64,000 bases of DNA from an uncultured Enterorhabdus sp. (GTDB lineage Bacteria > Actinomycetota > Coriobacteriia > Coriobacteriales > Eggerthellaceae). Of this stretch, positions 16,170-36,864 are shown one piece after another. The notes under the pieces are model-generated. The model saw nothing but the letters and a program-made list of their open reading frames with translations, was not told where the DNA came from and did no database searches. Each line of letters begins with the position of its first letter. The stretch's first letter is position 1. Where the stretch lies: the NCBI GenBank assembly GCA_947649205.1, contig CANSQM010000009.1, positions 4,757-68,756 of the forward strand. Reading direction: 5' to 3'. The position numbers and the translations under genes are program-made.

Positions 16170-17546
16170 CTAAAGCAGCGGTGGCACCTCGGTGGTGCCA
16201 AGATCGCAGTAGAAGGCGTTCGTCTCCATGGCAATGGCATCACCCGCGCCGCCTCCGGCCGGCGTGCCCTTGATCCTCATCACCACGCCCTGAATGGCGC
16301 CCTCGCCATCGAAATAGTAGCTGACAATGAGAGATCCAATGCTCTCCATGCCGTCGAAGAGCCCCGACGGCACCTTCGTCGGATCGGTATTCAGAACGTA
16401 TTCGATGGCTCCGTCATCATACTCGTACACATCGATACCCCCAGCGCAATCCAACAGCGCCAGCGCCTTCTCGATACCGGCGGGGTCATCCGGAACGCCC
16501 GTCTGCGATTCACCGACCACTTCGTCGCCTTGAATCACCTGCGACTGATCGCCATCGAAAATCGTAAGCGTCGCATTGTCTTCGTCCCCGTTAAGTTCCA
16601 GGTACATGGCAGCTTTGAAGCCGTCGGTGCGGTCAACCAGCGCCTCGGCGTATACCGTGGTGATTTCCTCCTGGCCGCCAACCGTCGTGGTGACCGTCGT
16701 CTCAGTTCCCACGGTCATATTGGCGGGAAGGCTCTCCAACCTCTCGCGTAGCTCGGCGGAGGCCTGCGCAGCATCACGCGTCACCAGCGCCCCCTCGTCC
16801 TCGGGCATCGGGGGTACCGTCACATTGCCCCAGTTGTGATAAGTCGTCTCGATGGCCGTGCGCGCTGGCACCGACTGGCCGCCGACCTCCGCAGCGCCCT
16901 TGGCCGTCACCGTCTCGCCCACCAGAGTTCCCATGGCGTTGAACCGACAGCTCACCTCAACTTCCGTCGGCTTCTCCACCAATCCAATAGCCTCGGGAAA
17001 TTCTCCTCCGAACCTCAGGTGGAATACCGTATCCTCTCCATCCTCTTCGACAGAGACCAAGGTGTCATAACGCCAATAGATTTCCTGCCAGCCGCCAACC
17101 AGTTGCCACCCCTCGCCACCAGTAGCTGGATTGATCGATGATACGTCAACAGCCCCTCCCTCGCTCACCTGCACGGTTTTCTCGCCCTCGGCGTACAGCT
17201 CGACGCCGTCTTTCTCTTCCCAGTCGCCTTCGTACTTGATGTACACAAGGGCGGCGCCGTCCGTGTTGTCGGCCACGGTCTCGCTGTTCAAGACGCCTTC
17301 TTGAACGGTGTCGCCCTCGCCAATGACATACCGTTCCGTTGTGTTGCAAGCATAGGAATCGGGAAGGGCGTTTAACAGCCCTTGCAGCCGCTCGGTCTCT
17401 TCCATGCCAACCCCGTCGGCATCACTCGGCTCACTGAAGCTCTCATCGCGCGTCGCATCCGCGCACGCACACAACCCCAGCGCCAGACACAGCGCCGCAC
17501 CCGCGGCCACCGCCTTCCGTGCCGCACGCGCCATACCAGCCGCCAT
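16170..17546 (-). CDS. Putative lipoprotein with two tandem LppX/LolA-like domains
   Basis: Signal ending LGLCAC; two ~190-aa repeats ending YHNWGNVTVPPMP and YCDLGTTEVPPLL; ATG 17546 after a GGAAAGGGG RBS. Confidence 0.7.
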   Translation of the reverse strand: MAAGMARAARKAVAAGAALCLALGLCACADATRDESFSEPSDADGVGMEETERLQGLLNALPDSYACNTTERYVIGEGDTVQEGVLNSETVADNTDGAALVYIKYEGDWEEKDGVELYAEGEKTVQVSEGGAVDVSSINPATGGEGWQLVGGWQEIYWRYDTLVSVEEDGEDTVFHLRFGGEFPEAIGLVEKPTEVEVSCRFNAMGTLVGETVTAKGAAEVGGQSVPARTAIETTYHNWGNVTVPPMPEDEGALVTRDAAQASAELRERLESLPANMTVGTETTVTTTVGGQEEITTVYAEALVDRTDGFKAAMYLELNGDEDNATLTIFDGDQSQVIQGDEVVGESQTGVPDDPAGIEKALALLDCAGGIDVYEYDDGAIEYVLNTDPTKVPSGLFDGMESIGSLIVSYYFDGEGAIQGVVMRIKGTPAGGGAGDAIAMETNAFYCDLGTTEVPPLL

Positions 17547-17643
17547 GGCATTCCCCTTTCCCCTCAAGCTCTCCGCATGGCAGACCGTCCCACCAAGAAG
17601 CGGCCTCCACCCCCATAGTATGCGCCCAAAGCCCGATAAAAAC

Positions 17644-17662
17644 CATCAACGTTCCGTTGATG
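17644..17662. promoter_or_regulatory. Perfect palindrome CATCAACG-ttc-CGTTGATG, candidate operator
   Basis: About 100 bp upstream of the lipoprotein start; same core as the boxes at 33400-33440 and 35790-35830. Confidence 0.7.
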
Positions 17663-17771
17663 ATGCCGCCCTGCGTCGGGAATCCGAGCGAGAACGTCGC
17701 CGGGGCAACAATCCAAAAGCCCAGCACACGCTCTGGGGAGGCGAACCGATAGGACGACTGGCTTCGCCGTT

Positions 17772-18173
17772 CTACGGCCTCACGTTCACGCGCACAATCT
17801 TCCAGCTTCCATCGGCGCCCTTGCGAATGTCAACCCATACACTATCGTATGAGCTGAGGTTGTCACCATCGGAATTCGTGTATCGCTGCGTGTAGCCAAT
17901 CCAAATACCCCCCATGTCGCCCCATACCCATGCAAAGTACTCTTGAAAGTCCTCTGTCCAAGTTCGCGACGAAAAGCCATCCTCATGGCAAACATTTTCT
18001 ATAGCGAAATGCCTCACCACCTTGTCCACTCCCTCATACTCGCTTTGCGACGAAGCCTCTATCTTTGCGACAACTTCGTAGGTGTCCACGCGAGCCCAAG
18101 CAATATAGGAGACAATCACAAGCAAGATAAGGACTCCACAGGCAACAATACGTGACCGAATTTTTCTAGACAT
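17772..18173 (-). CDS. Membrane-anchored hypothetical protein, candidate immunity for the amidase fragment
   Basis: N-terminal TM helix; ATG overlaps the upstream stop (TAATG) after GGAG. Confidence 0.7.
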   Translation of the reverse strand: MSRKIRSRIVACGVLILLVIVSYIAWARVDTYEVVAKIEASSQSEYEGVDKVVRHFAIENVCHEDGFSSRTWTEDFQEYFAWVWGDMGGIWIGYTQRYTNSDGDNLSSYDSVWVDIRKGADGSWKIVRVNVRP

Positions 18174-18615
18174 TAAACTCCTCCCCTGCTCTTGAGCCTG
18201 ACGATGTATGCGCCCTTCGATTCTCCGCCAGCATCGAGAGCCGCCTTCAACGATTGATCAAACCTACGTGTTGTGTTGGCTGCATAGTTAATCTTGTCGT
18301 CCGTTACGCCGCTCACCACTGCAGCATGATGGGCCTTGCCCTCGTCATTGTAGAAGAAGACCAGATCACCCGGCTGCACACCTAGGCCTTCCGTGCCTTT
18401 CGAAAGATCGTTGACAGCGACATTCTTCATACCGGCATTCTTCTGGGATGAATTGGTGTAGACGTTGACCACCTCGCCGACCGCATACCCATTGCTCAAG
18501 TCGCTGAAATACTCGTACTGATCCGACACGCGAATCCACGTCGTAGTGGTATCCCACTCCTTAAAGTACTTTGCATCGCCCTTCCCCGTTTCAGACCAAC
18601 CTCCCATCAACCCAT
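18173..18615 (-). pseudogene. 5'-truncated Amidase_6-like toxin C-terminus
   Basis: LMGGW...TWIRVSDQYEYF...VQPGDLVFF..GKAHHAAVVS..INYAANT; the upstream C-x-NF motif is absent; the 351-aa ORF call upstream of this is spurious. Confidence 0.65.
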
Positions 18616-19658
18616 ACGGAACCTCGGTCGTCGGGGGAGGTGAAAACAACCTGCTCGCCATAGTTGCTATCCCATACAAGCTGAAAGCCAAGACCCTCAA
18701 GACCCGCATCGACCCACCGCTCGAAAAGGAGCTGGGAGGCATACAAGCCGCCAGTCTGGTCGCCGCACAGTCGGAAAAGGTCGCACCCGGCGACACGATT
18801 GGTCGCCAAGGCGTACCGACGGATCCACATGTCGCCATTCGCCCCGCGGGCCACGTCTGTCTCCTCGCGAATGAAAGCGTCCACCTCAGGCACATCGCGC
18901 AGGTGCCACGCAAGCCCTCCGGAAATCCCCACATCCGAGGGACTCGCAACAAGTCCGCAGAGTTCCGCGAAGAACGCCTGGGCGCGACTGTCCATAAGAA
19001 GCGTACCGTCGCCCAAAGGCCTCGCATCACCCCACCCTTCCTCAACCCACGATTCGCCGGCCCACACTCTCCAGACGCGAGGCCGCCATGAGGCATCCTT
19101 TTCAACGGGAACCGCTCTCTCGAACTCGACCGTCGGCCCGGCAACGCCCGATAGCTCGATCCTCGCCCCCGGCCCAACATCGGGTTCGGCCAGCGCCATG
19201 CAGGCACGGGCGAGAGCAATGAAGCCATCCCGATTGGCGACGAGAGTCAGGCTGTCCCCATCGATTTCCGACCCCACATGCTCGCCTGGCTCGAGCTGCA
19301 GGAGAGCACAGGCGTCCCGGCCAGCGCCCTCTGAAACATCGATTGCGATCTCTCCAAGCCTTTCCGCGGGCGGGATACCGGGCCCAGCTTCCTCGCCCTC
19401 GCGAACCAGGGTCAGCTCCGTAGACCCATCCTCCAAATCGGTGCCCGTCTCAAGATGCTCATGCAGTGGGCGACCGCCGTCAAAACTCGCAAGTGACATG
19501 CAGATACGGGCGAGGGAAATAAGCCCCGGACGGTTGGCGACCACGACGATCCTCCCAGAGCGCTCCATCGTCCAAATCCTGTAGCAAGGAGCCCACCGAT
19601 ACCTCATAGTGTCCCCATCCTCCCAGAGGGGATATTCAAGCCTTCTCTTCATGGGCAC
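18591..19658 (-). CDS. Fused immunity protein: two Imm32-like domains plus a DUF1629/Imm11-like domain
   Basis: ANRPGLISLARICMSLA..HEHLE..LEDGSTEL; ANRDGFIALARACMALA; C-terminal GLEGLGFQLVWDS resembles the end of 22667-23245; GAGGAGG RBS. Confidence 0.72.
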   Translation of the reverse strand: MPMKRRLEYPLWEDGDTMRYRWAPCYRIWTMERSGRIVVVANRPGLISLARICMSLASFDGGRPLHEHLETGTDLEDGSTELTLVREGEEAGPGIPPAERLGEIAIDVSEGAGRDACALLQLEPGEHVGSEIDGDSLTLVANRDGFIALARACMALAEPDVGPGARIELSGVAGPTVEFERAVPVEKDASWRPRVWRVWAGESWVEEGWGDARPLGDGTLLMDSRAQAFFAELCGLVASPSDVGISGGLAWHLRDVPEVDAFIREETDVARGANGDMWIRRYALATNRVAGCDLFRLCGDQTGGLYASQLLFERWVDAGLEGLGFQLVWDSNYGEQVVFTSPDDRGSVWVDGRLV

Positions 19659-19882
19659 CTCCTCGCCCTAACGGAACACGAGCTGCAACTCCATTGCGAT
19701 ACCCCAATTGCACACGGCAGGCGACCAGCCGCTATCCGCGCTCGTACTTCAACGCCCCCGCCATTCGCAAGGCGACCGTCCCAGAATCCCAGAGCACTTC
19801 TCTTTCAGCATGATCGCCACGGCTCGCCCTTCCCGTCATCTACGGTATCTGCTTGCCCTGTTTTCCCGTCGCGGCCCAGCCG

Positions 19883-20398
19883 TTATGCCCGTCCCCGCTT
19901 GAGTTCTTCCAGCCACTCATGAGGCGGAAGACCCAGAGCCCCGGAGTGCTGCGCGTCGAAGGCATTCCGGTACCCCCTGCGGAACGCCCCCGCGGCCACG
20001 ACGAGAGGCGGCTCGTCGCAATCGTCGTATGCGAGATCGATGGCATCTGGAACGTAAAGGGACACACCGTACTTCATGGATTCGCATCCAGCATTATCGC
20101 ATCTGAAGTCGCCGCCCATCGCAGAGATCCCCTCCAATACCTCGACGTATTCCCCCGGGAAAAGCTGATATCCCTCAAGGAACACCTCTCCTCCGAAGAT
20201 TTCGACAAAGTCACATTTCCCATGGGCATCGAAACTAACGAACAGGTCGACAAACTCCTCTGTATCCGGATCGCCGGGCGTGCGCGAATCACGCCGAAAA
20301 CGAGTCCGAGGCTCCCCCAATATGTCATGAACCTCCTGCGTCGTCATACCAAATCGCAACCCGTCAACGCCAACATATGGTCTTATTTCATGCCTCAT
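19883..20398 (-). CDS. Putative immunity protein, probably cognate to the decayed toxin upstream
   Basis: IRPYVGVDGLRFGMTTQEVHDILGEP N-terminus typical of genes behind Rhs C-termini; GAAAGGAG RBS. Confidence 0.65.
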   Translation of the reverse strand: MRHEIRPYVGVDGLRFGMTTQEVHDILGEPRTRFRRDSRTPGDPDTEEFVDLFVSFDAHGKCDFVEIFGGEVFLEGYQLFPGEYVEVLEGISAMGGDFRCDNAGCESMKYGVSLYVPDAIDLAYDDCDEPPLVVAAGAFRRGYRNAFDAQHSGALGLPPHEWLEELKRGRA

Positions 20399-20430
20399 AT
20401 ACTCTCCTTTCCGCTATGGCTAGCGCCAAA

Positions 20431-20780
20431 CTAGATAAGCCCTTTTCGTTCGAGTTCGTTGGTGTAATCTTGCATTTGGGATATTTCTCTGTTGTATTTA
20501 TCGCCGAAGTTGCTCCGAATGTCGTCGACGTCCATCTGCTGGGCTTCCCTAAAACGTCCTTGCTCGATTTGTCGTTCTTGCTCTTTTCGATATATCGCCG
20601 CTTTTCACTTCCGCCCCAGCTAGCTGTTTGACGGTGGCCGGCCGACGTGAAGGACGAGGCTGCGTCCGCGTAGTTGCCCCTCGGCAGCGTACCACAAACC
20701 GTTAACCACGTCGGTGCCGGCACCGAAGCCCGGGACGAGCCCATGTAGGACACTGTGCCGTACAGCGTGTGCATCACCCG
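20431..20780 (-). pseudogene. Decayed PT-TG-like segment plus toxin C-terminus, two frameshifts
   Basis: Reconstructed GLVPGFGAGTDVVNGLWYAAEG/NYADAASSFTSA-GHRQTASWGGSE/KAAIYRKEQERQIEQGRFREAQQMDVDDIRSNFGDKYNREISQMQDYTNELERKGLI*. Confidence 0.7.
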
Positions 20781-20988
20781 GTGCCTGAAAGAATCGGTTT
20801 ATAGCGACCAGCTCTACGGAATAGCGCCTCTGAGGGGAGCCTGTCAGCGTCCGGCGGACGCGCCATTCATTTGCCAGGATGAAGGGGAGCAGCTCGACTC
20901 TCTCGCCACAGAACGCCATCCCTCTCGTACGTTTGCACCAGTACGGCGGCACGGCCGGACAATCGACAGCGGTTCCTGCCTTCTCGGC

Positions 20989-21567
20989 TCACCATTCAAC
21001 TGCTGCATCTTCAGGTGGAAAGCCTATAGTCAGCCTCCTTCCTTGGAGAAAGCACCGAGCCCGGTCGAGAAGGGCGCGCCTTCTCTGCGAGACAGAGAGC
21101 CCTGCAGGGCTACGGTCGGCGCTCTCTGCGGGAATATAATAGATGAAAGGCCTCATATCGGCAGGATAGCCCAGAGTCGCGTAAACATCTGCCAACGCGT
21201 CGAGGAGCTCTTCGTCAGACCCCCGCCTGTCTAGAGCGGCCTTGCACAGGACGTACTCCCATCTTTCCTCGGCCAATCCGACCGCATGAACATCGGCGAG
21301 CGTCTCTACGCGACCTATGACTTCATCACGATTAAGATCGGGCCAGCAGAGTTCTAGCAGAGCTCTCTCATCGTCTTCCCCTTGTTTTCCGTCCCCCTCC
21401 AAAGCTCGCACTGCCTCATCGGAGGCCTCCTTCTCGGCCACAAGCCCTACCTTCAACCCGAACATGACATCTACCCAGGTAGGAACTAGTCCGTACCTAT
21501 GAAACAAACCTAGAGACATATCGGCTCCCGTCCACTGTCCAGCCGCTCTTCTATCGCCGGCCCTCAT
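20989..21567 (-). CDS. DUF2247-like putative immunity protein (start uncertain, 21567-21633)
   Basis: RWEYVLC, LADVYATLGYPADMRPFIYYIP motif. Confidence 0.7.
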   Translation of the reverse strand: MRAGDRRAAGQWTGADMSLGLFHRYGLVPTWVDVMFGLKVGLVAEKEASDEAVRALEGDGKQGEDDERALLELCWPDLNRDEVIGRVETLADVHAVGLAEERWEYVLCKAALDRRGSDEELLDALADVYATLGYPADMRPFIYYIPAESADRSPAGLSVSQRRRALLDRARCFLQGRRLTIGFPPEDAAVEW

Positions 21568-21767
21568 TGTCAAACCGCACAAGGACAACCGGACAAAACA
21601 GTCTGACGTCTCATCCCACGCATAGGCAATCATCCTCTTGGACTCCCCTCCCAGCCATGTTTCTCAAGAATCTGATGTCCGTCACGGCCATGCCTTCCCC
21701 CATCTCGGTTGCTTGTACAGCGGCATCTCCTGGCCGGTGCGCGGGCCGCCGCGGGTGCCCTCGGCGG

Positions 21768-22670
21768 CTACCCGCAGTCCCAATAGTACATGACCCGCGA
21801 GAAGTCGAGGCGGCGCAGGTCGTCGCCGTTGATGAGGAACACTCCCACACCGCCATCGCCCCACTCGACCCAGGGGCGCACGCCGTCGTCGACGATGCTC
21901 GAATCCAGCTGGAACAGAACCGTGTCATAGCGGCGCAGACCCTCGCAGTCCGGCCACAGGCGCGGGTCGCACTGCTCGAAGCTCGGCCACCCGCCCACCT
22001 GACTGCGCGAGCCGCGGGGAGGGCACACGGCCGCGACCTCGTCGACCCACAGCTCCCCGGGACAGCCCTCCGCTTCCAGGAACGCCGGCAGGCCGCATCC
22101 GTCGTCCGCTAACCGCAGCGGGGCCTGGGGGTGCACGCGGCTCCAGGCGCGGACAAGCAGCGGCTCAAACCTCCATTCGCAGGCCGTCATGGGCCGCAGC
22201 TCAACAGCGGGCCCAAACCGGAGGGCCCAGGACCCGGGCGGGTAGAAGGGCAGCCGGTCGCTAGTACCCGGGGGAGGATCGACAGCGGCGAGCGGCGCGG
22301 CGTCCCAGTAGAGGACGCGGAACCCGTCCTGCACGTCGTAGCCCGACGCGCCCACGCCCCAGCCGGGGCCGGCTCCCAGGACGAAAAACTGGAGCAGGCC
22401 CGTGTGCGGGAAGCCCGGCAACGGGGCCAGATCGGCGCATTTCACCTGCGCTAGGAGCGACAGCGGCCGTCCCCGGGAGTCGCGCGGCCACTGTTCTCCG
22501 GGCGGCATCAGCGGAAGGCCGCCGAGCCGGCTGCAGAGCCGGTCGGGAGGAGCCGTCCCCCCGATCTCGAACGACAGGGCGGCCCTTCGGTGGGCCCAGC
22601 CCACTTCAAGGATGGCCTCCTCTATCTCCCGAGTCGCAGATCCCTCCGCCCCCGGCCCAAAGCCGCTCAT
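21768..22670 (-). CDS. YwqG/DUF1963-family protein (immunity-associated)
   Basis: SRLGGLP..P..WP..PLSLLAQV, GLLQFF, VGGWPSFEQ.DPR, LFQLDS, WGDGGVG.FLI..DLRRLDFSRV.YYWDC; ATGA overlap with the upstream stop at 22670. Confidence 0.85.
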   Translation of the reverse strand: MSGFGPGAEGSATREIEEAILEVGWAHRRAALSFEIGGTAPPDRLCSRLGGLPLMPPGEQWPRDSRGRPLSLLAQVKCADLAPLPGFPHTGLLQFFVLGAGPGWGVGASGYDVQDGFRVLYWDAAPLAAVDPPPGTSDRLPFYPPGSWALRFGPAVELRPMTACEWRFEPLLVRAWSRVHPQAPLRLADDGCGLPAFLEAEGCPGELWVDEVAAVCPPRGSRSQVGGWPSFEQCDPRLWPDCEGLRRYDTVLFQLDSSIVDDGVRPWVEWGDGGVGVFLINGDDLRRLDFSRVMYYWDCG

Positions 22671-23245
22671 ACGCATACCGTCCGGAAGACGATGCTGCCC
22701 TGGGGCAGCTCGCTGTCCCACACGAGCTTGAACTTCAGCCCCGTCAGGCCGCACTCCTCGACACGCCGCTTGAAGGCCTCCGTACAGAAGGGGCTGTACA
22801 CCATCTCCTCGGGAATGCCGAAGAGGGCCAGGGTGGCAATGGTCTCCCGATGAAGCTGGTACTCCAGAAAGCCCCTCACCTCCCCGGACGTCGTCCGTTG
22901 TACCACCGACCTCCCGTGGTCTACGCACCCTTCCGTCGACATCACGTGCAGGAGCCACAAAGGCTCTCCCTCCAAGTCTGCCGCCAGCAATTCGACGTTG
23001 TCGCCCATGAGATCCTCTAGGCACCTTTTAGCGCGATCGGACACAACCAGAGAGCGACCCGTGAACCACGGGGAATCGAAGTGCAAGGGGGCATGAGTGC
23101 CGTCCACCCCCTCCAACTCCAGTTGCGCCCACCCGCTTCTGCGCGGCGTATCATCGAGAACGTCGACAACAAACGGGAAGTTCCCTCCCTTCACCCGAAC
23201 CCAATCGTTGTTCTCCTCCGAATGGCCCACTTTCCACACCTTCAT
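22667..23245 (-). CDS. DUF1629/Imm11-like immunity protein, cognate to the AHH toxin
   Basis: First gene after the Rhs stop, TAAGGAG RBS; VVSDRAKRCLE, FCTEAFKRRVEECGLTGLKF. Confidence 0.8.
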   Translation of the reverse strand: MKVWKVGHSEENNDWVRVKGGNFPFVVDVLDDTPRRSGWAQLELEGVDGTHAPLHFDSPWFTGRSLVVSDRAKRCLEDLMGDNVELLAADLEGEPLWLLHVMSTEGCVDHGRSVVQRTTSGEVRGFLEYQLHRETIATLALFGIPEEMVYSPFCTEAFKRRVEECGLTGLKFKLVWDSELPQGSIVFRTVCV

Positions 23246-23257
23246 AAGTAACACTCC

Positions 23258-26200
23258 TTAATAATCGAAAGTACCCGCTACAAGCTCTCCGCGTATCTTG
23301 GCGAGCTCTTCAAGAACTTCTTTCTTCGAACCCGATGCCTTTAATATGCGCGTATTGACCTCCTTATAATACTCATTGGTATGCAGACCTGGGTGATAGG
23401 CACTGTCTGGAACGATCTCTTTTTTCGTCGGAAGATAGACCCCATTCGCTGGATCGTTAATATCGATACCCCATTTTTCAAGGACCCGTCGCGCTTCATC
23501 AGCCTTTGCTGCACCTCCCGCGATAATATGATGCGCTGCATAATCCGAACTAGGGCGAGTTACGCCCGCTTCCTTCATATTGTGCGCAAGCACTTTCGAG
23601 CTAGCCGGCCTCCCAAGCTTCAATGCTGCTGCGGATTCCTTAGATGCATCCGACGCGGCTTTTGCGATACTCTTTGCGACCTTTCCGCCCTTGAGAAGGT
23701 CACCCCCATAGGGGATGATCGCAGCAATGGCAGAAATCGCCATGTTCGTATAATCTTTTTCCCGCCAATAGGCTATCGCGTTGACGCCGTCAGACAGAGG
23801 TGTAGGGTCGAACGTCCCGATAATGTCGAGGGTAGTGTGGGTATCGGAGTTGTGATTCTTCTGCTTCGGCGCGTTGTAGTAGGGCAGCGTGGAGCACATG
23901 AGGCGCTTAATGCGGGCAGCCTCGCGCTCGGCGTAGATCTGCGCCGAACTCTTCCTCTTTTTCGATGGGGAGAATATCTTCTTGGTCGTCCTGCCGACCG
24001 ATCGGGCTGCCTGAGAGACGCTCCACGCCTTCTCAATGACACTCGATCCACTCGTGCGTATTATCGTGTTTGACTGGAACGGGGCTTTCGGTTTGCCTCC
24101 GGATGCGAGTCGCCTGTCCATGCTCCTGTTGGTAGTAAGAAGCCCAGAGGTCTTCGTTTTCAGGGCCTTCGAGGTGTAACTCCGCTGCATCCAGGTTCCC
24201 TTGCCGCCCGAGAGCACCCGGTTACGACTGTAGGAGTTCTTGCGGACCTGCTTAGCGGTCTTGCCTCTCGTCGAACGCGACTCGTGACCCGTGGGGTCGG
24301 CCGAGGCCACGGGGTTGCCCTCGGCGTAGGCGTAGCGGTTCAGGGTGGCGGGGTCGGCAGCGTCCCCCAGGTAGGTGTCCCGGCTCCCGAAGGTGCCGGC
24401 ACCCGGGTCGTACCAGCGGGCGCGCAGGTACTGCAGGCCGGCGGCGCCCGTGGCCTCCTCGCCGTTGTAGCCGTAGTGGGGCAGCTCGGACTGGTAGCCG
24501 ATGCCGCCCAGGGCCGGACCCCCGAACTCGCCGGTATCGGCGGCTGCCTCGCCCCAGGGGGCGTAGGCGTAGCTGGCCGCGATGCGGCCGTCGCCGGCCA
24601 TTACGGCGCTCACGCTGCCAAAGCCATCCTCCAAGTACGTATCGGCCACGGGCACGGCCTCAGTGCCGCCCACAGTGGATAGGCGCCCCAAGCCGTAAGT
24701 GTCGTTCAGGGCGCCCGATACACTGGATTCGCGGGCCAGAGGCTGGGCCACATCGTCGATGACCGTGGAGTTCACATAGGCCACCAGCTCCCAGCGCTCC
24801 TGCACATAGGGCGTGTAGGTGGGTATGGTGCCGTAGCGTACTTGCACGCTGTCGCCCAACGGCTTCAAGACAGCAGGCTCTTGAGCCGCTGGCACCAAAT
24901 CATTGCCGCGCAGCGGCAATGCCCGAGGGGCAGCAAGGGGCACACCTGCCGATGAGAGGATGGTCTGGCGCTCTTCGGACGAGAGCGTGGCCGCTGCCAG
25001 CAGGGCCGCATCAGTCCCCGGCAGCGGTATCCCGAACGGCTGGGCGCCATGGGTGGCCAAAGGATCCAGCAAGCCGTCCAACAACGCAACCAGAGCCGTT
25101 GCAGCCGGGCACGCCGGCACGAGGGCCGATGCGGCACCTACCGCTGCGCCATAGACCGCCCAGCGCAGAGCCGGATCGGAACCCGGGGCCTCCCGCTTGG
25201 CGGACGCGGCCCTCCACGAGGCCACGGGAGCCTCGATGGGGCGGCGCTCCCAGGTGCCAGTGGTGGCGAGGCGGCCGAACTCTGCCGCTGTCCACCGGGG
25301 TGCCACGCGGGTAGGAGCGCCCCACCAGGCAGGGTCTTCGGGCTCAGGCAGGGGCTGTCCCGGTGTAACTTCCTTGGGCTCCAGCTCCGTGAAGGGCATC
25401 GTGCCCACGGCCAGCTCGTCGGTATGGTACAAGGTGGCCTGGAACACACGGTTGCCATCGCCATCGTACGTGGCAGCCATGAGCACGCGGCCGCCCTGGC
25501 GCACAGCGGCCAGCCGGTTCTCGGCGGTATAGGCGTACTCCACAGGGTCTTCGCCGGCGGCATCCTTGCGCACCAAGTTGCCGGCCTTATCGTACTCGTA
25601 GGTCGTGCGCCCCTCCGGCCCCACCGATTCCACGAGACGGTCATCGTCGTCGTAGATGAGCTTCGTAAGCGCGGTAGAGCCCGAGACCACGTCGGTGCGC
25701 TCGATAGCCGTGCGGTTGCCGGCGGCATCCCACTGGTATTCCTCCCGGATGTGGGTCTCCCCCGAGCCGTCATCGGTCTTCTCCTCGAAGGCAATCAGGC
25801 GGTCGTCGTCATCATAGGCATAAATGCGCGCGCTTTGAATGACGACCCCATCGGGGTTCGTGAGGACCGCCTCCTCGGCAATGGGATTGCCCTCGCCGTC
25901 CCACTTATAGGCGAACGACGAGACGGAGTCGCCATCGGCCCCGGCGTTTTCCAGCTTTGCCAGCTGGCCTTCACCGTCGTACTCGTAGGTGGTGACCGAC
26001 CCATCGGGCCGCATCAAGCGCACGGGGCGGTTCTCTTCATCGTACTCGTAGGTGTAGTCACCCTCGGCCGTTCGCACCTGGATGAGATTGCCTACCGCGT
26101 CGTAGGCATAGGCCACCACCGAGCCATCGGGATAGGTAACCGAATCCAGCTCACCCAAGCTGTTGTAGGTGTACTGGATGCGGCGTCCCTGGCCGTCCGC

Positions 26201-32200: not shown

Positions 32201-33328
32201 TTTCTCGATAACGATGCCGCGCCCCTCGCCCAAGGCTGCGGGCAAACGGAGATCGAACCCGTTGGCAGCAGGTTCGTACACGGTGGCGAAGTTGGGCTCG
32301 GGAAACACGGGGGCCGCTCCATCGCCTTCGCCGGAATCGCTTGCGCCCTCGGCAACAGCCGCAGCGCTCCCCCTTTCAGGCGAATCGGGCGCGAACAGGG
32401 AAAGGAACGCGGCCACGGGTCCTTCGTTCGCCGGTTCCTCAGCGACAACCAGGGTGTTATCAATGGGTCGGGCACTGCCATCTTCGTCGACATAGGCTGT
32501 GGCCACACCACCCAGCACTGTACGGAACCGCGTCTCCGAAAGCTGGTAGACCGCCACTCCATCTTCTGCCGATATCAGCTCCCCTTCGGGCTCTGGCTCG
32601 GCGTAGTAGTCCACCGGCGGCGCAGGTTCAATCACCTCGACAACGGGAACTTCCTCGGTGGCTTCTTCCGAATGCAGACCCTCCCCTTCGGATCCCGCAT
32701 CTGCCGATGCCGAGGGATCCTCCGGCTGTTCCTCCGAAGGCAACGGCAGAACATCGTCACTCCCCAGATCCGATTCTGCCGAAGAAGGGGCGTCTTCCTC
32801 GGTCGGACTGGGAGATGTTTCTTCATCGGGCTCGTCCGCGGGCCCGGGCAGGCCCGATTGCTCCCCATCTGCGCCGGGTGTCTGAATGTCGCTTTCCGCC
32901 TGCGGTGCTCCCGTATCACCTCGCAACTCGTCAGCATAGGCAGCCACGCCATCGCCCAGCAGCGAGAACGTAAGCAAGAATGCAAGGAGGCAACAGAGGG
33001 CTTGACGACCCGATCGGCGCATCCGGGGCACCACGGCATCCAAAACACTCGCGTTGATGCCACCCCGATCGCTTCGATTCCTCCGCGAACGTCCGTAGAG
33101 ATGTCGCACGAGCATGACCATGGCTACGGTGGAAGAGCCCAGGCCGATCGCGACGGAAGCCATGCGAACGAAAGCCCGGGCCGCTGACAAGCCGTGAGCG
33201 GGCACAACCCATTCCCAGGCAGCCCAGCCAACCAGTCCTGACAGCAATGCCGCCAAAACTGCGGCGCCGAGCATAGCGCTCAAGCACTTTGCAATAACGT
33301 AGCCAAACCCCCGAGACATGGTTCTCAT
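23258..33328 (-). CDS. Giant WapA-like Rhs/YD-repeat polymorphic toxin: TM/signal region, DNRLRE, LysM, DUF6531, YD repeats, Rhs core, PT-TG-like segment, AHH nuclease (start 33319-33361)
   Basis: Unbroken ORF; EPINLNTGNF...LTRTYN; dozens of YD/YE repeats; GYNGEE..GLQYLRARWYDP..G.F; NPVASADPTG; AAHHII...NGVYLP...HPGLH. Confidence 0.95.
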   Translation of the reverse strand: MRTMSRGFGYVIAKCLSAMLGAAVLAALLSGLVGWAAWEWVVPAHGLSAARAFVRMASVAIGLGSSTVAMVMLVRHLYGRSRRNRSDRGGINASVLDAVVPRMRRSGRQALCCLLAFLLTFSLLGDGVAAYADELRGDTGAPQAESDIQTPGADGEQSGLPGPADEPDEETSPSPTEEDAPSSAESDLGSDDVLPLPSEEQPEDPSASADAGSEGEGLHSEEATEEVPVVEVIEPAPPVDYYAEPEPEGELISAEDGVAVYQLSETRFRTVLGGVATAYVDEDGSARPIDNTLVVAEEPANEGPVAAFLSLFAPDSPERGSAAAVAEGASDSGEGDGAAPVFPEPNFATVYEPAANGFDLRLPAALGEGRGIVIEKDGHRIELVPEEGDFTHSAAEGNAIRYTEVRPGVDYQYTLLGGVVKEDVILTRPVEAFAPAMKIIVDDDLEVVHERGIVIVREKGAAPDPSDGESADPALAATAQDPREIITLSAPIAIDAAEAVDNSVSMALGTAEDGTPVARVEANWEWLSAPERAYPVRIDPTIDIAKSAMRVTAVEQLAPDTYVGENDFQYAGYDDGDKTGTAEFRGGYGLGMCRVYLAIQYDFGNIMDEARIDSAKLWLHQRTAFSNGKTELGLYRNKSSWDFDSITWNSQKSMGHEFVTSQNARTSKGYLAWDVREPVNNWVQGTWGQNGLCIKATDERNMQCELLDNKNADNPPSLEIDWAVPDPVSESLSLNATTINLRTVTEADFAGKLQLDGVFADGVAQPRSMVAYELVGKNDAGVAYASRSYKYPDSTEWEKQVPSGTKYRDKLSNWQSKLFGGFAFNTSYKVRARAAANGSSGKLVESDSFLVYKATAKDTLPSIASHYGVSLNTLAQDNRVQDTLIVGGNTIFVRNPKTTKAYNPKQLTDSQKKRIDSALMGRGRHCEYGFEPINLNTGNFILEATDASVPGLGGDFALTRTYNAQGDGYLSSFGRNWSFAWDESLGLQENGAAVYSVGDGKTYWFDPDGKGGFKRHGEAGLALKKIAYKEGSATRYRWEIVDDDGTVRRFDKWGRLTEIQDAGGSITRIGRDANGHIASLADRTGTSYAVTCNAQGLITAVSLPGGARLAYGYDAGGNLTSFTDAGGRAVRYEYDGAGRMTAWYDQNGRRVVANTYDGANRVTRQVDLAGNVNTLSYGSGYTRATDAAGRTTVHRYDDRGRTTSIEYPDGRKVARVYGANNTLISDENGTYAYDAAGNLVQSTSPDGHVTRYTYDGKNHVTSRTDPDGATTRYTYDGAGNLLSETSPATGTTAYTYDFANRCTSKTDADGVRETYAWTGAKLMRVETAAGTTRYAYDAMGRKVSETDPAGHGRTWAYDAAGHLVGERDGAGGSRSYRLDGLGLVKAITDERGYTTSFTYDGAYRIATMTDPAGGVTRYGYDKAGNLVRQVEPGGAVATYAYDARDRMVSETDALGHTTRYAYDERDNVIRVESPDGVVEEAAYDDTYGVPTSYTDPLGNVTTYRYDAAGHLTETEDALGVSERITWEPGGRRASVADGRGTTTSYAYTAAGRVSSIDEAGRTWSFAYDGSGAMEGATDPAGRAFSFTWDGAGNLTSLSDGQGAIASWTHDGEGRTLSETDALGAVTRFAYDGAGNVVRECDALGHETSYEYDAFGAVTAVTDAAGNTVRCEYDEAGNVVAVTDALGHRRTAAYDAVGNLVSATDTLGNVTAYEHDTAGRVTARVRPDGARETSEYDKLGRLVRTVDAAGVEATYEWDVRDNLTAVSDSAGSAEVYEYDGAGNLTSATDSLGRTASLEYDAWGREVRASDFDGSVTTYEYDAAGNLSREIDGLGHAISYGWDARNNLLSETREADGAVTSYEYDAAGNITAATDAMGAVRRWAYDAVGNTTEAVDEEGNATTYGYDALGNLVRSTDPLGNSAVFVWDANGNLTAATSPEGSRDQWAYDGEGRLMSHTDALGREEQWAWDALGNLTTHTDTAGAATSYRHDAVGNLTAETDPLGRTTAYEYDARGNVLSRTAPGGGRWEYGWDELDRLTRITTPRGYVRELEYDEAGNAAVDRDNLGARVTYSYDLLGRLTGQEDAAGHKRSWEWDDAGNLAAETDAAGVRTEYAYDGLDRLVSQRNGEGESARWAWDARGNLVAQGGTDIEGLVFSYDAAGNLTSQADARGNITAYEWDGDGRLARQTSPMGAVTTYRWDKVGNLSAVTDSLGRVSSWDYDDANRVVRATDRNGHSAAYEWDDAGQLTKVTSPEGAVTSYEYDLDGNLAQVTDAMGRITRYGYDAEGGLTSVESPSGALEEFVRDPAGRVTAVVDAAGNATTYDWDELGNLVEKGYSQGDAQSVLYAYDANGLVTARADAMGEAAYEYDEVGRVIAEADGQGRRIQYTYNSLGELDSVTYPDGSVVAYAYDAVGNLIQVRTAEGDYTYEYDEENRPVRLMRPDGSVTTYEYDGEGQLAKLENAGADGDSVSSFAYKWDGEGNPIAEEAVLTNPDGVVIQSARIYAYDDDDRLIAFEEKTDDGSGETHIREEYQWDAAGNRTAIERTDVVSGSTALTKLIYDDDDRLVESVGPEGRTTYEYDKAGNLVRKDAAGEDPVEYAYTAENRLAAVRQGGRVLMAATYDGDGNRVFQATLYHTDELAVGTMPFTELEPKEVTPGQPLPEPEDPAWWGAPTRVAPRWTAAEFGRLATTGTWERRPIEAPVASWRAASAKREAPGSDPALRWAVYGAAVGAASALVPACPAATALVALLDGLLDPLATHGAQPFGIPLPGTDAALLAAATLSSEERQTILSSAGVPLAAPRALPLRGNDLVPAAQEPAVLKPLGDSVQVRYGTIPTYTPYVQERWELVAYVNSTVIDDVAQPLARESSVSGALNDTYGLGRLSTVGGTEAVPVADTYLEDGFGSVSAVMAGDGRIAASYAYAPWGEAAADTGEFGGPALGGIGYQSELPHYGYNGEEATGAAGLQYLRARWYDPGAGTFGSRDTYLGDAADPATLNRYAYAEGNPVASADPTGHESRSTRGKTAKQVRKNSYSRNRVLSGGKGTWMQRSYTSKALKTKTSGLLTTNRSMDRRLASGGKPKAPFQSNTIIRTSGSSVIEKAWSVSQAARSVGRTTKKIFSPSKKRKSSAQIYAEREAARIKRLMCSTLPYYNAPKQKNHNSDTHTTLDIIGTFDPTPLSDGVNAIAYWREKDYTNMAISAIAAIIPYGGDLLKGGKVAKSIAKAASDASKESAAALKLGRPASSKVLAHNMKEAGVTRPSSDYAAHHIIAGGAAKADEARRVLEKWGIDINDPANGVYLPTKKEIVPDSAYHPGLHTNEYYKEVNTRILKASGSKKEVLEELAKIRGELVAGTFDY

Positions 33329-33399
33329 CCCCTTCTGAAGCCAAGGGCCCATGAAAACCATTATGGAATCTATCAGCTAAAATATCATTCGTTTAACGC

Positions 33400-33440
33400 C
33401 AACTTATCGTTGATAAAGAAAACGATTCGTTGAGAATCAC
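33400..33440. promoter_or_regulatory. 41-bp tandem-operator box upstream of rhs
   Basis: caacttatcgttgataaagaaaacgattcgttgagaatcac; 35/41 identical to 35790-35830. Confidence 0.8.
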
Positions 33441-33456
33441 GCTCGTCTCCAGCGCG

Positions 33457-33699
33457 CTAGTCTTCAGTGTAGAAGTCTTCCTGCTCGTCCGCCTCATCGT
33501 AGACGTAATCGAGAATATCCCCTGGCTTGCAATCGAGCGCCCGGCACAGTGCATTCAGAGTAGAGAAGCGAATGGCCTTGATGCGCCCCGTTTTGATGCG
33601 CGAAAGATTGTTCTCCGAAAGGCCAATGAGCTCGGCTATTTCCTTCGACTGAACCTTCCGCTTCGCAAGCATTACGTCTAAGTTTACGATGATTGCCAT
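33457..33699 (-). CDS. Cro/C1-type (YozG-like) XRE HTH regulator
   Basis: IIVNLDVMLAKRK, LSENNLSRIKTGRIKAIRFSTLNALCRALDCKPGDIL. Confidence 0.92.
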   Translation of the reverse strand: MAIIVNLDVMLAKRKVQSKEIAELIGLSENNLSRIKTGRIKAIRFSTLNALCRALDCKPGDILDYVYDEADEQEDFYTED

Positions 33700-33711
33700 G
33701 GCTCCGCTCCC

Positions 33712-34254
33712 CTACAGGGCCTCGTCGGCCAATTCTTGCAGAGTTTTCCCATAGCTGAGAATGTAAGCAAACAGGAAGAATGCCCCAGCAGCAATAAGTG
33801 TCTCGAAGTTGAGGTTGAGCCCTCCGGGTTGATCGCTGGTAAAAATCCCAAAGTCAACACCGCCAAAAGAAAAGCTAAGCGCCGAGACCAAAGGATCCCA
33901 GAAAAGGCAAAACAGGGTAAAGCCAACCATAAGCCACCCCGTGACCAGCATGCGCCTGATTTGTTTTTCAGAAAACGGAGTGGCGCCTTTCGCCACATCA
34001 TGAGCAACGAGAGCGCAGAGGGTAAAGGCGAGGCCCATCACGACATCCTGCGTAAGAGCATACATCGCCCCAATCCAGACAGCAGCCCCATTCCCTGAGC
34101 CTGATTGCTGAACCAAAGCGACAAGAAGGAATAGGGCAAGAACGACAAAGAACGCTGCGGCTACAGCAAAAGCTACGCTAAGGAAGCGGCCCATACGATG
34201 AGCCCTCTGAAGCGATGATTCGATCTTGCCCAATTCTCTGTTGATTTTCAACAA
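33712..34254 (-). CDS. DUF2975 membrane protein
   Basis: About 4 TM helices, GATPFSEKQIRRM, YGKTLQELADEAL ending; usual partner of a YozG-like XRE. Confidence 0.85.
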   Translation of the reverse strand: MLKINRELGKIESSLQRAHRMGRFLSVAFAVAAAFFVVLALFLLVALVQQSGSGNGAAVWIGAMYALTQDVVMGLAFTLCALVAHDVAKGATPFSEKQIRRMLVTGWLMVGFTLFCLFWDPLVSALSFSFGGVDFGIFTSDQPGGLNLNFETLIAAGAFFLFAYILSYGKTLQELADEAL

Positions 34255-34287
34255 AGTTCCTTTTCTCAGTCTGCTATGCCCAACAAA

Positions 34288-34482
34288 CTATAGGACGAGA
34301 GGCTTGGGTTGAGGAAAGTAGCCTTTCTTTTCACAAAACTTGCGCACCTGGGAAGACTCGCTTTTTGTCTCCGCGCTTTGCTTCGCATAGCCGACGTTTA
34401 CGCACACGCCTCCAAACCCAATATGCTGGCAACGCGAGTGGGAAGGGACATCGAAATCATCGAGATCAGAATGAAACAGCAT
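34288..34482 (-). CDS. 64-aa candidate RiPP precursor peptide
   Basis: AAAGGAGG RBS before ATG 34482 inside the rSAM 3' end; MLFHSDLDDFDVPSHSRCQHIGFGGVCVNVGYAKQSAETKSESSQVRKFCEKKGYFPQPKPLVL. Confidence 0.72.
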   Translation of the reverse strand: MLFHSDLDDFDVPSHSRCQHIGFGGVCVNVGYAKQSAETKSESSQVRKFCEKKGYFPQPKPLVL

Positions 34483-35701
34483 GGTTTGCCTCCTTTGGCA
34501 GTTGTCGTTTGATACTTTCCAACGTTTCCCTAAAAAACACCTGGTACAAGGTGCAATATGGGTCAGTTTCCCCGCCACTTCCTATGGCGCGGGCCCGGCA
34601 ACCGGTGCCACAAAGGTAGCGCAGGTCGCACGAGGCACACGGACTCGAAGCGCTCACCTCGTGCACTCGGCGGCCAATCAGCTCGCATTCCTTCGCCGTC
34701 GGTCCCTGCCCATCAAACACATTACCCATGCCATAGCGCTCGTCGTGCATCATGTGGCAGGGGTACACCTCGCCATCGGCGGCCACACTGAGCGTGTCCA
34801 TGCCGGCACCGCAATTCTCGCGGCACTCCAACCCGCTCGCGAGTGTCTGAATGGCCGCCCCATCGCCTCCAGAGCACTGGATCATTATGGAAGCCAAGCG
34901 TCGCAAGTCATCGTCAGTGGGCATGAGGCCCTCGTCGCCCCATCCGCAAGACGTAGAAGAAAGGAGGCTGAAGTTCAGTTCGCAATGCAGCCGAGCAGCC
35001 AAATCATAGTAGAGCGGCACATCATCTATATTGAGGCGGTGCATCGTGGGGGTAATGCAGACATTGATATCCGTCGCCTGCGCCTCGGTCACGAATTCCA
35101 CCAGTCGATCGAAACGTTGCTCTCCGCGAATGAACGCTGGATGGTCGGCAGTCGCCCCGTCGAAGGAAACGGAGATCGTATCGATATAGGGAGCGCAAGC
35201 AGAAAGAAGACTCCGATCAAGCACTGTTCCGTTTGTTAGCACGTTGATGGATGAAATCCCATGATCGATAGCCGCCAACTCAAGGATAGCAGGGAGGTCG
35301 GAGCGCAAGAAGGGTTCACCGCCCGATATATTCAACTCCGCAATGCCCCGCGACGAAAGATACCGCAATGCGTTGCCAATCTGCGTTACCGTAGGGTCAT
35401 CAGCACCATTGCGATCACCAATCCAGGAATAGCATCCCTCGCATCGCAAATTGCACCGGTGGGTAATATGCAGATAGGCACTCTTCAATACAGGCAAGGC
35501 CAGCCGGTCCAATCGGCCTGCCTCCATCTGCGCCGCCAAATCAGGAGCCAATCTCCCTACCTCAGCGATGGACACTTCGCCGGCCACGAATGCCTGCGCC
35601 AGCGGCACTTCATCGGGCGAGAGGCCAATCACGAAGCCTGTCTGAGGGTTTCCAAGCATCGCAATACCGTCGACGGCGAAAAGCCGAGCCCGTTCGTTCA
35701 C
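34466..35701 (-). CDS. Radical SAM/SPASM protein with N-terminal RRE-like region, probable peptide maturase
   Basis: CNLRCEGC, SGGEP, LTNG, VSFDG; SPASM CGAG..ADGEVYPC..CASCDLRYLCGTGCRA..DPYC; GTG 35701 after an AAAGGGG RBS. Confidence 0.9.
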   Translation of the reverse strand: MNERARLFAVDGIAMLGNPQTGFVIGLSPDEVPLAQAFVAGEVSIAEVGRLAPDLAAQMEAGRLDRLALPVLKSAYLHITHRCNLRCEGCYSWIGDRNGADDPTVTQIGNALRYLSSRGIAELNISGGEPFLRSDLPAILELAAIDHGISSINVLTNGTVLDRSLLSACAPYIDTISVSFDGATADHPAFIRGEQRFDRLVEFVTEAQATDINVCITPTMHRLNIDDVPLYYDLAARLHCELNFSLLSSTSCGWGDEGLMPTDDDLRRLASIMIQCSGGDGAAIQTLASGLECRENCGAGMDTLSVAADGEVYPCHMMHDERYGMGNVFDGQGPTAKECELIGRRVHEVSASSPCASCDLRYLCGTGCRARAIGSGGETDPYCTLYQVFFRETLESIKRQLPKEANHAVSF

Positions 35702-35789
35702 TGCATTTCGCCCCTTTCGATACGCATTGTTCCTCTCAAGCCGAATCATAGTTTCCGCTCTTTCGTCGTTGTTTTCCAGTCCCGATTAT

Positions 35790-35830
35790 CAACTTTTCGT
35801 TGTTAATTGAAACGATTCGTTGATAATCAC
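35790..35830. promoter_or_regulatory. 41-bp tandem-operator box between rSAM and lysR
   Basis: caacttttcgttgttaattgaaacgattcgttgataatcac; outer arms GATTATCAAC (35784-35793) and GTTGATAATC (35819-35828) are inverted repeats. Confidence 0.8.
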
Positions 35831-35934
35831 AAGGCTCATTTTCCAGAAAGTGCCCTATATGCGATTCACAACACCCCCAATCATCGAGTATCATTGATTA
35901 CCAACGAAGTTTTGTTGATTGCGGAGATGACGAT

Positions 35935-36864
35935 ATGCATATCGATCATTTAGCTTACCTTGTCGCGACGGTGGATTTGGGCAGCATGGCCGAAGCGGCC
36001 CACCACCTGCACGTGACCAGTCAGGCAATCTCCAAGGCCATCAAAGACATGGAGAAGTACTTTGGCCACGAGATCATTGCGCGCGACGGGCGCAGCATTA
36101 AGCCCACAGCGCTAGGCACCGAGCTTGCAGACCTCGCCCGTCCCGTTGTTGAAGGGTATAAAGACTTCGAGGCATTTGGGCTAAGCTACGTTAAGGACGG
36201 CGATTCTCCTCGCGCTATTCGACTGGGCATTCCCGTTACCGCCTTACGCGGCGCTCTGTTTGATGAAAGCCGGCTCGATCTTTTCCGATTTGAATTCCCG
36301 GAAATCTCACTGGAACTATTTCACAGTTCAGCGGACGGGTGTCTGAGGGCCTTAGAGCAGGGGCTCATTGATGCAGCGGTCAGCATTGGCCGCTGCAACC
36401 AGGATGACTTTTTCAACGTGCGTATCGGCTCGTTGCAACTTAAGGTTCTGGCTCGCACAGGCCACCCCGCCGCCGTGGGCGAAGCGGTCGATTTCAACGA
36501 TTTGGCACGATTCCCCATCGCGCTTCCCGAAGACCTGCGCTTTGTATTTCCCAAAATCGATCAGCAGTTTACCCAAACAGGCCAAAGTAATCGCTTCGAA
36601 GCCCTCACGCCAACCCTCGAAGCCCACAAAGCCTTTCTCGCCAAAGATGGCCTCATCTTGGCGGGCCAGAAGAGTCCGCTTCTGGAACTGGGTGATTTCC
36701 TGTGCGAAAAGCCACTTACCGTCGAAGAAGGCATCTTCGCCCTGCCCCTTTACCTCACCTACCCCCAGAATAAAAACCACCTTAGCCTTTCCCGCCTTCA
36801 ATCCACCCTTATCCGAGGACGGGGATCGCAAGAACCGTTACCCGCGAATCGTTCCCGCCCATAA
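35935..36864 (+). CDS. LysR-family transcriptional regulator
   Basis: GSMAEAAHHLHVTSQAISKAIKDMEKYFG..IIARDGRSIKPTALG; substrate-binding domain. Confidence 0.92.
   Translation: MHIDHLAYLVATVDLGSMAEAAHHLHVTSQAISKAIKDMEKYFGHEIIARDGRSIKPTALGTELADLARPVVEGYKDFEAFGLSYVKDGDSPRAIRLGIPVTALRGALFDESRLDLFRFEFPEISLELFHSSADGCLRALEQGLIDAAVSIGRCNQDDFFNVRIGSLQLKVLARTGHPAAVGEAVDFNDLARFPIALPEDLRFVFPKIDQQFTQTGQSNRFEALTPTLEAHKAFLAKDGLILAGQKSPLLELGDFLCEKPLTVEEGIFALPLYLTYPQNKNHLSLSRLQSTLIRGRGSQEPLPANRSRP

Follow-up and report, generated by a model that had tools for sequence, protein, structure and literature searches.

The DNA analyzed here, referred to as the window, is a 64,000-nucleotide stretch from the genome of an uncultured Enterorhabdus sp. 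of the Eggerthellaceae (GenBank assembly GCA_947649205.1, contig CANSQM010000009.1, positions 4,757 to 68,756). It carries a four-gene cassette resembling the operons for peptides that are made on ribosomes and modified after translation (RiPPs), followed by the gene for an Rhs polymorphic toxin, an array of immunity genes and a lipoprotein gene (Table 1). The cassette encodes a radical S-adenosylmethionine (rSAM)/SPASM peptide maturase, a 64-aa precursor peptide, a membrane protein and an XRE-type regulator, and a lysR gene is transcribed away from it. An initial annotation, made from the sequence alone, had placed the rSAM gene, the peptide, the membrane protein, XRE, rhs and the immunity array on one strand with lysR divergent, and this order and orientation (all on the minus strand, lysR opposite) were confirmed by open reading frame (ORF) listing and Pfam searches. 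The short intergenic gaps were likewise confirmed, measuring 33 nt between the peptide and membrane protein genes, 12 nt between the membrane protein gene and XRE, and 95 nt between XRE and rhs (137 nt to the second rhs ATG). The guanine-plus-cytosine (GC) content of the window is ~64% and drops to 52-58% at 14-22 kb and at 32-38 kb. Below, G000 denotes the genome that holds the window, and other L- and G-numbers are the labels of the compared loci and genomes.

Table 1 Genes and candidate regulatory sites of the locus, in window coordinates
Feature	Position	Strand	Basis or remark
LysR-type regulator	35935-36864	+	HTH_1 3e-15, LysR_substrate 4.8e-17; divergent from rSAM operon
rSAM/SPASM peptide maturase	34466-35749	-	Radical_SAM PF04055 7.5e-21, SPASM PF13186 9.9e-5
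64-aa precursor ORF, "MLF" family	34288-34482	-	Overlaps rSAM stop by 17 nt
DUF2975-family membrane protein, 180 aa	33712-34254	-	Alignment with homologues
XRE-type regulator	33457-33699	-	HTH_26 PF13443 6.6e-22, cut-off 22 bits
Rhs polymorphic toxin, 3367 aa	23258-33361	-	N-terminal transmembrane segments; Pfam: CBM96, LysM, DUF6531 (1.8e-16), 43 RHS repeats, AHH nuclease tip (2e-20)
Imm11 cognate immunity candidate	22667-23254	-	PF07791 2.1e-5
Orphan immunity array: DUF1963, DUF2247, Imm32 x2, others	17772-22530	-	Pfam
Lipoprotein with two LolA-like domains	16170-17567	-	Lipobox LGLCAC; AlphaFold2 and Foldseek
Upstream operator U, tandem dyads CAACGAATCGTT and CAACGAAAAGTTG, 20 bp apart	35790-35830	-	42-82 nt before rSAM ATG
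Downstream operator D, second tandem-dyad copy	33400-33440	-	17 nt after XRE stop
Third site, perfect dyad ATCAACGGAACGTTGAT	17644-17660		~90-115 nt before lipoprotein start; unique in genome
lysR-proximal dyad AATCA-N11-TGATT, candidate second regulator site	35879-35899	-	Read from sequence
Promoter-like site for rhs, ATGATA-17-CATAAT	33360-33388	-	Consensus scan

The cassette and the toxin gene share a repeated DNA element. A 41-nt block of the form GTGATTMTCAACGAATCGTTT-N7-CAACGAWAAGTTG, containing two 13-bp dyads (CAAC-N5-GTTG) set 20 bp apart, stands before the rSAM gene (operator U) and again before rhs (operator D). The initial annotation had described one palindromic operator before rSAM, rhs and the lipoprotein gene; the 41-nt element is indeed common to the first two, but the lipoprotein gene is preceded by a single perfect dyad that is not the same element. 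The 41-nt pattern gave two matches compared to none in 100 shuffles and is present in only two copies in the 2.7-Mb genome, across which the 14-mer core TCAACGAATCGTTT is also confined to U and D. Across the genome there are six matches to TCAACG-N3-CGTT, of which three fall within an 18-kb stretch of the locus; the remaining sites (C4:58158, C29:8060 and C5:54996) were set aside, none being in a clear promoter context. The promoter predicted for rhs would set the D dyads near -74 and -54, and no terminator-like site was found between XRE and rhs by consensus scan.

The same cassette-Rhs arrangement is found at L089 (rSAM 96% identical) and at L091 (rSAM 71% identical, Rhs N-terminus 66% identical). 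Before rhs in L091, the arms of both dyads are kept and site B is altered only within its N5 spacer; the 27 nt that follow the dyads, GTTAAACGAATGATATTTTAGCTGA, are identical to the window with the promoter-like site included, and the spacers and the remaining intergenic DNA have diverged. In addition, the bases beside the dyads change in step at the rSAM-side and rhs-side copies of each genome, reading GTGATT...CGTTT in the window and TATTA...CGTTC in L091. Judged by this conservation, the rhs-side operator looks functional. The third site is also found in strain L174, with both arms intact and a single change in the central N5. The A. muris loci and G031 have decayed or variant copies of D immediately past the XRE stop, preceding secreted-protein or lipoprotein genes. 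These cassettes belong to clade I of the rSAM tree, as does that of the window, and no downstream copy was found in other clades when 36 loci were compared for common upstream and downstream words; on this comparison, the downstream operator copy is a clade-I trait. A dual operator as a general feature of the cassette was rejected, since among the 36 loci it was seen only in the window, L089, L091 and, weakly, A. muris, with G031 besides.

For the cassette and Rhs, 151 Eggerthellaceae genomes were surveyed and, separately, one genome per species was sampled, which gave 51 family loci with ±10 kb of flanking sequence. The Eggerthellaceae hold 43 copies of the cassette in 38 of the 151 genomes, including three copies in G000. 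An Rhs gene adjoins only four of these 43 cassettes, leaving 39 without an adjacent Rhs, and rhs was found within 10 kb of the rSAM-peptide homologues at none of the 51 further loci. The initial annotation had proposed a candidate new system of a RiPP operon wired to an Rhs toxin and had itself named the occurrence of most rSAM-peptide homologues without rhs as evidence against it, which is what we found. To speak of a new RiPP-Rhs system would go too far, since the cassette is a general module that does not depend on Rhs: it is self-contained, common in Eggerthellaceae and other Coriobacteriia, and normally unrelated to Rhs.

The neighborhood takes on a different appearance when approached from the toxin. 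The Rhs N-terminal architecture is present in 12 of the 151 genomes at 13 loci, ten of which have a readable upstream flank, and in four of these ten (G000, G007, G082 and G024) a cassette lies directly at the 5' end of rhs. In G007, a member of the same genus, the cassette is on the same strand as rhs and its rSAM is 36% identical to that of the window. G082 and G024 belong to another genus, and there the cassette genes run peptide, membrane protein, XRE and rSAM, divergent from rhs. The four Rhs-adjacent cassettes thus represent three well-supported clades of the rSAM tree (I, II and III) and two orientations. By our own estimate, based on one to three cassettes per ~2.5-Mb genome, chance adjacency would occur at ~1e-3 per locus, so that even two independent events would be unexpected. 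The cassette-Rhs neighborhood recurs more than chance allows. Wider sampling of Rhs at the level of the class added only two distant Rhs genomes, neither of which has a cassette.

The toxin locus itself is of an ordinary kind. The Rhs shell ends in the translated sequence NPVASADPTGH, and the Imm11 gene starts 4 nt after the rhs stop; in G007, where a second contig carries the rest of the locus (the rhs 3' end, Imm11, an array and a lipoprotein gene), a homologous toxin tip is likewise followed by an Imm11 homologue (72% identical). Gram-positive Rhs/WapA-type toxin loci have the same features, namely a secretion and wall-binding N-terminus, DUF6531, an RHS shell with a DPxG end, an exchangeable AHH tip, cognate immunity and a strain-variable orphan array. 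No description of an Rhs locus preceded by a RiPP cassette with a common operator was found in the literature. As a separate observation, L174:5083-9745, where the lipoprotein is 95% identical, holds an entirely different post-rhs array from window positions 17772-23254 (a 214-aa protein, a lone HTH_26, DUF4240 and others), with the flanking lipoprotein and DUF3825 genes kept. This is classic replacement of a toxin tip together with its immunity genes.

The lipoprotein gene at the far end of the array is connected to the cassette by its occurrence elsewhere. A full-length homologue (25% identity, E 7e-20) lies directly after the cassette XRE in L092, another (40% identity) follows a clade-II cassette in G252, a genome of the same genus without Rhs, and a further homologue closes the Rhs array of G007. 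The lipoprotein is a recurrent cassette partner, and as its gene directly follows cassettes in two other genomes, the Rhs island in the window's genus sits between the cassette and the lipoprotein partner. The family is small, with 22 representatives among 1.8 billion proteins, and occurs in seven of the 151 Eggerthellaceae genomes, four of them Rhs-positive; these fall into three genera, two of which are those with a cassette beside rhs. The lipoprotein has no sequence-family match in Pfam or NCBIfam. An AlphaFold2 model built from 16 sequences (pLDDT 80, pTM 0.74) shows two beta-rich domains, and the best Foldseek matches are to LolA (E 1.6e-6, probability 1.00), with a template-modeling score of only ~0.43 per domain (on the target) and a root-mean-square deviation of ~7 A. 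The LolA-like fold carries hydrophobic ligands. A LolA-like lipoprotein closing an Rhs array was not found mentioned in the literature.

The enzyme at the head of the cassette has the hallmarks of an rSAM/SPASM maturase. Its CxxxCxxC motif (CNLRCEGC, residues 99-106) is invariant in 13 homologues, the PF13186 match exceeds its cut-off, and of the seven SPASM cysteines for two auxiliary clusters, C313, C331, C371, C374, C384 and C399 are invariant in the homologue alignment and C380 is nearly so. The nearest solved structures are CteB, PqqE and SkfB, and the top NCBIfam matches are MftC, ScmE and PqqE, the best of these (MftC) scoring 95.1 bits against a cut-off of 265, with all 70 matches below their cut-offs. 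None of the named maturase families (MftC, PqqE, ScmE, SCIFF/CteB-type, StsB, PapB, WgkB and others) is reached at the curated NCBIfam cut-off; assignment of the rSAM or the peptide to a named family was accordingly abandoned, NCBIfam and Pfam giving generic matches only. The known rSAM/SPASM RiPP clusters (CteA/CteB, SkfA/SkfB, streptosactin GggA/GggB, MftA/MftC and PqqA/PqqE) share with the cassette the CxxxCxxC motif, the full SPASM cysteine set and a short, adjacent, Cys-containing precursor. Unlike them, the window enzyme scores far below the family cut-offs, the precursor family matches no model, and the cassettes of Coriobacteriia always have a DUF2975-family protein and an HTH_26 regulator but no transporter or peptidase. 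The statement of the initial annotation that the locus holds no RiPP exporter was borne out, and the window cassette has neither transporter nor protease.

The precursor belongs to a family defined by its start. The window peptide reads MLFH...C-x8-C-x3-GY followed by a basic C-terminal extension, and an MLF-family peptide occupies the same position in 39 of the 43 Eggerthellaceae cassettes and is present in Firmicutes relatives as well. From 40 peptides at these 39 cassettes and four from further relatives, 44 precursors were gathered, 43 of which fit the pattern M[LV]F-x(6-15)-C-x(2-3)-[ILV]G-x(2-6)-C-x(2-4)-G. Most of them are 26-29 aa long; the window clade adds a basic extension of ~30 aa, with 66% conservation in L091. 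The family (MLF start, C-x7-9-C, [IV]G-x end) has no matching model in NCBIfam or Pfam. The core holds one or two conserved Cys. Products of the sactipeptide and ranthipeptide type contain Cys-to-carbon thioether cross-links.

The two remaining cassette genes are conserved in arrangement, with XRE following the membrane protein gene in nearly all cassettes. The label DUF2975 given to the membrane protein in the initial annotation applies only at the level of the family, six of 16 aligned homologues matching PF11188 (best 3.6e-8); the window protein itself has no Pfam match at E<=0.01 and none to PF11188 at E<=1. The alignment shows two conserved motifs, PF[ST]xxQ and a C-terminal YGxxLQxxSDxxV. 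The same annotation had cited DUF2975/YozG pairs as a known combination of membrane partner and regulator, for which no source was found in the searchable literature. No paper or curated model describing a cassette of rSAM, MLF precursor, DUF2975-family protein and HTH_26 was found, and literature searches on DUF2975 with radical SAM, on RiPPs in Coriobacteriia or Eggerthella, on Rhs with radical SAM and on streptosactin-type precursors returned nothing relevant.

Among the 51 loci, ~30 are from Coriobacteriia, where the XRE gene lies 650-900 bp beyond the rSAM gene. The Firmicutes relatives have MLF peptides, sometimes several in tandem, and ABC transporters in place of the membrane protein/XRE pair; two to four tandem precursors follow one rSAM gene at L027:11260-11727, L052 and L057, and there are four in a Lachnospiraceae metagenome-assembled genome. 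G000 itself contains two further rSAM paralogues, 42% and 39% identical; both are accompanied by a peptide, a membrane protein and an XRE of their own and lie away from rhs. On contig C16 (58813-60024) the order is rSAM, peptide MLFYGEPEPQNVCFYVGPSAPCLKVGI, membrane protein and XRE, and on contig C12 (42062-43279) it is peptide, membrane protein, XRE and rSAM. ABC transporter genes (ATPase and large permease) adjoin the C12 cassette (C12:36500-41000) and one cassette of G070 (G070_b, L159), and the C12 cassette is also near a relaxase; therefore, some cassettes appear to ride on mobile elements.

Signs of cassette exchange are also seen at fixed chromosomal positions. An HtrA-like protease gene lies at 38671-40347, 3 kb upstream of the window cassette, and the G000 and G007 loci are syntenic for the HtrA gene (71% identical), the cassette and rhs; this HtrA-rhs slot holds a clade I cassette in G000 and a clade II cassette in G007. 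A second slot, beside a CoA-transferase gene, holds a clade II cassette in G000 and G143 and a clade I cassette in G434, G070 and L092. As the same slots carry different cassette clades between species, cassettes appear to have been exchanged between fixed, paralogous slots. Giant proteins as common neighbors of cassettes were considered and rejected. In the metagenomic relative L092 (L092:14095-21224), the cassette and the lipoprotein gene are followed by the start of a predicted gene of 11,519 residues, the first 2376 of which have no Pfam match.

Two locally encoded proteins are candidates for binding the dyads. Of the 43 family cassettes, 17 have a divergent lysR and these fall into two distant clades, and CAAC-N5-GTTG with at most one mismatch occurs 40-110 nt before the rSAM start at 11 of these 17 compared to one of the 26 cassettes without lysR. 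The tandem 20-bp spacing of the dyads is seen in G114, G001 and G065 as well. The motif also tracks a residue of the XRE recognition helix, being present at seven of 11 cassettes with NVNLSR and one of nine with NVNMSR. Because the CAAC dyads correlate both with LysR and with the XRE residue, the data do not separate the two as candidate binder. A division of labor with XRE on the CAAC dyads and LysR on AATCA-N11-TGATT was dropped in view of the same double correlation; L091 and L038, a distant Collinsella locus that also has LysR, both keep the AATCA-N11-TGATT dyad. In L090 and L092, the CAAC dyad is kept although lysR is cut to ~90 codons. The short lysR of the CoA-transferase slot (L090:9429-9713, L092:9469-9726 and G070/L145) is an intact ORF of ~85-95 codons with HTH_1 only; its conservation across three genomes means that it may encode a working mini-LysR limited to DNA binding and not be a pseudogene. 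The classical site of LysR-type transcriptional regulators is a T-N11-A box. None is evident in the lysR-rSAM intergenic region, where the dyads read T-N13-A when extended. The window resembles known divergent LysR-target pairs in having lysR divergent from the operon it flanks and, in the intergenic region between them, two dyads separated by about two helical turns; it departs from them in the absence of an evident T-N11-A box, in the recurrence of the sites at two more promoters, and in an in-operon XRE that is an equally good candidate binder.

In total, three separable units adjoin at this locus: a RiPP-like cassette with a divergent lysR, an ordinary Rhs/AHH toxin with Imm11 and an orphan array, and a LolA-like lipoprotein gene. 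Given tandem dyads at the rSAM and rhs promoters and a perfect dyad before the lipoprotein gene, one local regulator is predicted for all three units. This regulator, LysR or the cassette XRE, would control the rSAM operon, rhs and the lipoprotein gene together, and read-through from XRE into rhs may add to the coupling. We favor, with moderate confidence, such a local regulon under LysR or XRE, at a locus where the Rhs island separates the cassette from its lipoprotein partner. Sequence conservation supports well a lineage-specific coupling of cassette, rhs and lipoprotein gene through the shared dyads. Joint switching-on of the cassette and rhs is thus probable in the window's lineage, but the toxin is not a general part of the cassette. 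Gene content, the distribution of the family, the uniqueness and conservation of the sites and the recurring adjacency of cassettes to Rhs and to the lipoprotein are direct observations; what we infer is the binding of a regulator at the sites, its identity, the direction of control and the role of the modified peptide.

Several points weigh against a local regulon of this kind. The promoter calls are consensus matches only, and the third site is a single dyad, seen in one genome and one near-identical strain. The dyads do not fit the classical T-N11-A box, and they correlate with both LysR presence and the XRE helix residue. In G007, which has the same syntenic order of HtrA, cassette and rhs, a terminator-like hairpin follows XRE, the gap to rhs is 340 nt, and a shared operator was rejected, as no sequence is common to the rSAM and rhs upstream regions; adjacency is therefore not always accompanied by a shared operator.

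A tighter form of coupling, in line with the initial annotation, would make the rSAM-modified peptide itself a signal or cofactor, sensed through the DUF2975-family protein and XRE or as a co-inducer of LysR, that turns on Rhs, with the cassette serving as a dedicated control module for antagonism. The operator common to the rSAM operon and rhs, the membrane protein and regulator that always accompany the cassette, and the lack of an exporter or leader peptidase in cassettes of Coriobacteriia, whose Firmicutes relatives have ABC transporters, are consistent with such a signal, as are the recurrence of cassettes at Rhs 5' ends in three clades and that of a partner lipoprotein with a hydrophobic-ligand fold. 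We nevertheless consider it unlikely, as no Rhs lies near 39 of the 43 cassettes or any of the 51 further loci, G007 shows adjacency without a shared operator, and a common regulator would not in itself make the peptide the inducer.

Cassette and toxin could instead be independent tools of the same variable region, deployed together under one regulator, with the modified peptide as an antimicrobial or fratricidal RiPP and the DUF2975 protein as an immunity or handling factor. The absence of a transporter or protease from the window cassette and the long basic C-terminal extension of clade-I precursors speak against a weapon of this type, and we regard it as improbable. Relatives and chemistry speak for it: homologous rSAM-MLF clusters that include transporters of the ABC exporter or immunity type, and in some cases several tandem precursors, as bacteriocin clusters do, are found in Enterococcus, Streptococcus, Staphylococcus, Bacillus and Lachnospiraceae; the nearest solved enzymes include the thioether-forming CteB and SkfB; the precursor core has one or two conserved Cys; and self-targeting sactipeptides of similar size are known (PMC9389541). 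Finally, it is very unlikely that there is no functional link at all and that the Rhs island was inserted beside an older cassette in a recombination-prone, low-GC variable region with the 41-nt direct repeats as scars of cassette exchange, since, although the cassette region has a GC content of 52-54% compared to ~64% for the genome, the same slots hold cassettes of different clades across species, and the repeats, which have the same orientation, enclose just the four cassette genes, a scar would be expected to decay evenly whereas the dyad arms are kept and the spacers are not across ~30% protein divergence, the third dyad lies 16 kb off before a gene that is a cassette partner elsewhere, and the adjacency recurs in another genus in the opposite orientation.

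A regulatory parallel to the local regulon that we favor is found in streptococcal radical-SAM RiPP operons, where shp/rgg genes lie upstream of the streptide, tryglysin and streptosactin clusters and place them under quorum-sensing control, and whose products often act on the producer's kin (PMC9389541). Both are small rSAM-RiPP operons with a dedicated, adjacent transcription factor. The streptococcal regulator, however, senses a separate SHP pheromone and controls the RiPP operon only, whereas the candidate regulators here are of the LysR and XRE types and the operator also stands before the Rhs and lipoprotein genes.

Other genes near the locus include a low-GC ORF of 342 aa at 37079-38107 (+), just 3' of lysR on the same strand, which has no Pfam match and may form one operon with lysR; its start at least is conserved in L089 and L091, whereas the G007 locus lacks it. 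A 2063-aa surface-type protein with DUF11 repeats is encoded at 40552-46743 (-), upstream of the HtrA-like protease gene, and the 2006-aa ORF opposite it is almost certainly just a shadow of the high GC content.

The genetics of Eggerthellaceae, although they are common in the gut, has been little studied, and a widespread, uncharacterized RiPP-like cassette is now defined in them, consisting of an rSAM/SPASM enzyme, an MLF precursor of 27-64 aa, a DUF2975-family protein and an HTH_26 regulator. In some lineages an Rhs nuclease toxin and a LolA-like lipoprotein are linked to this cassette physically and, in all probability, by transcription. A more far-reaching idea, to which we give a low probability, is that the MLF cassette would be a peptide-sensing circuit of gut Coriobacteriia, in which a hydrophobic, rSAM-modified peptide would be handled at the membrane by two proteins, the DUF2975 protein and the LolA-like lipoprotein, with XRE or LysR reading it out, with an output promoter driving variable "cargo", here a contact-dependent Rhs nuclease, so that the RiPP would gate interbacterial killing. 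Should the association be one of location only, the cassette family would keep its value as a target for RiPP chemistry. A real coupling would be a first example of one operator governing both a RiPP operon and a contact-dependent toxin, and the three short DNA sites and two candidate regulators would offer a handle on the timing of antagonism.

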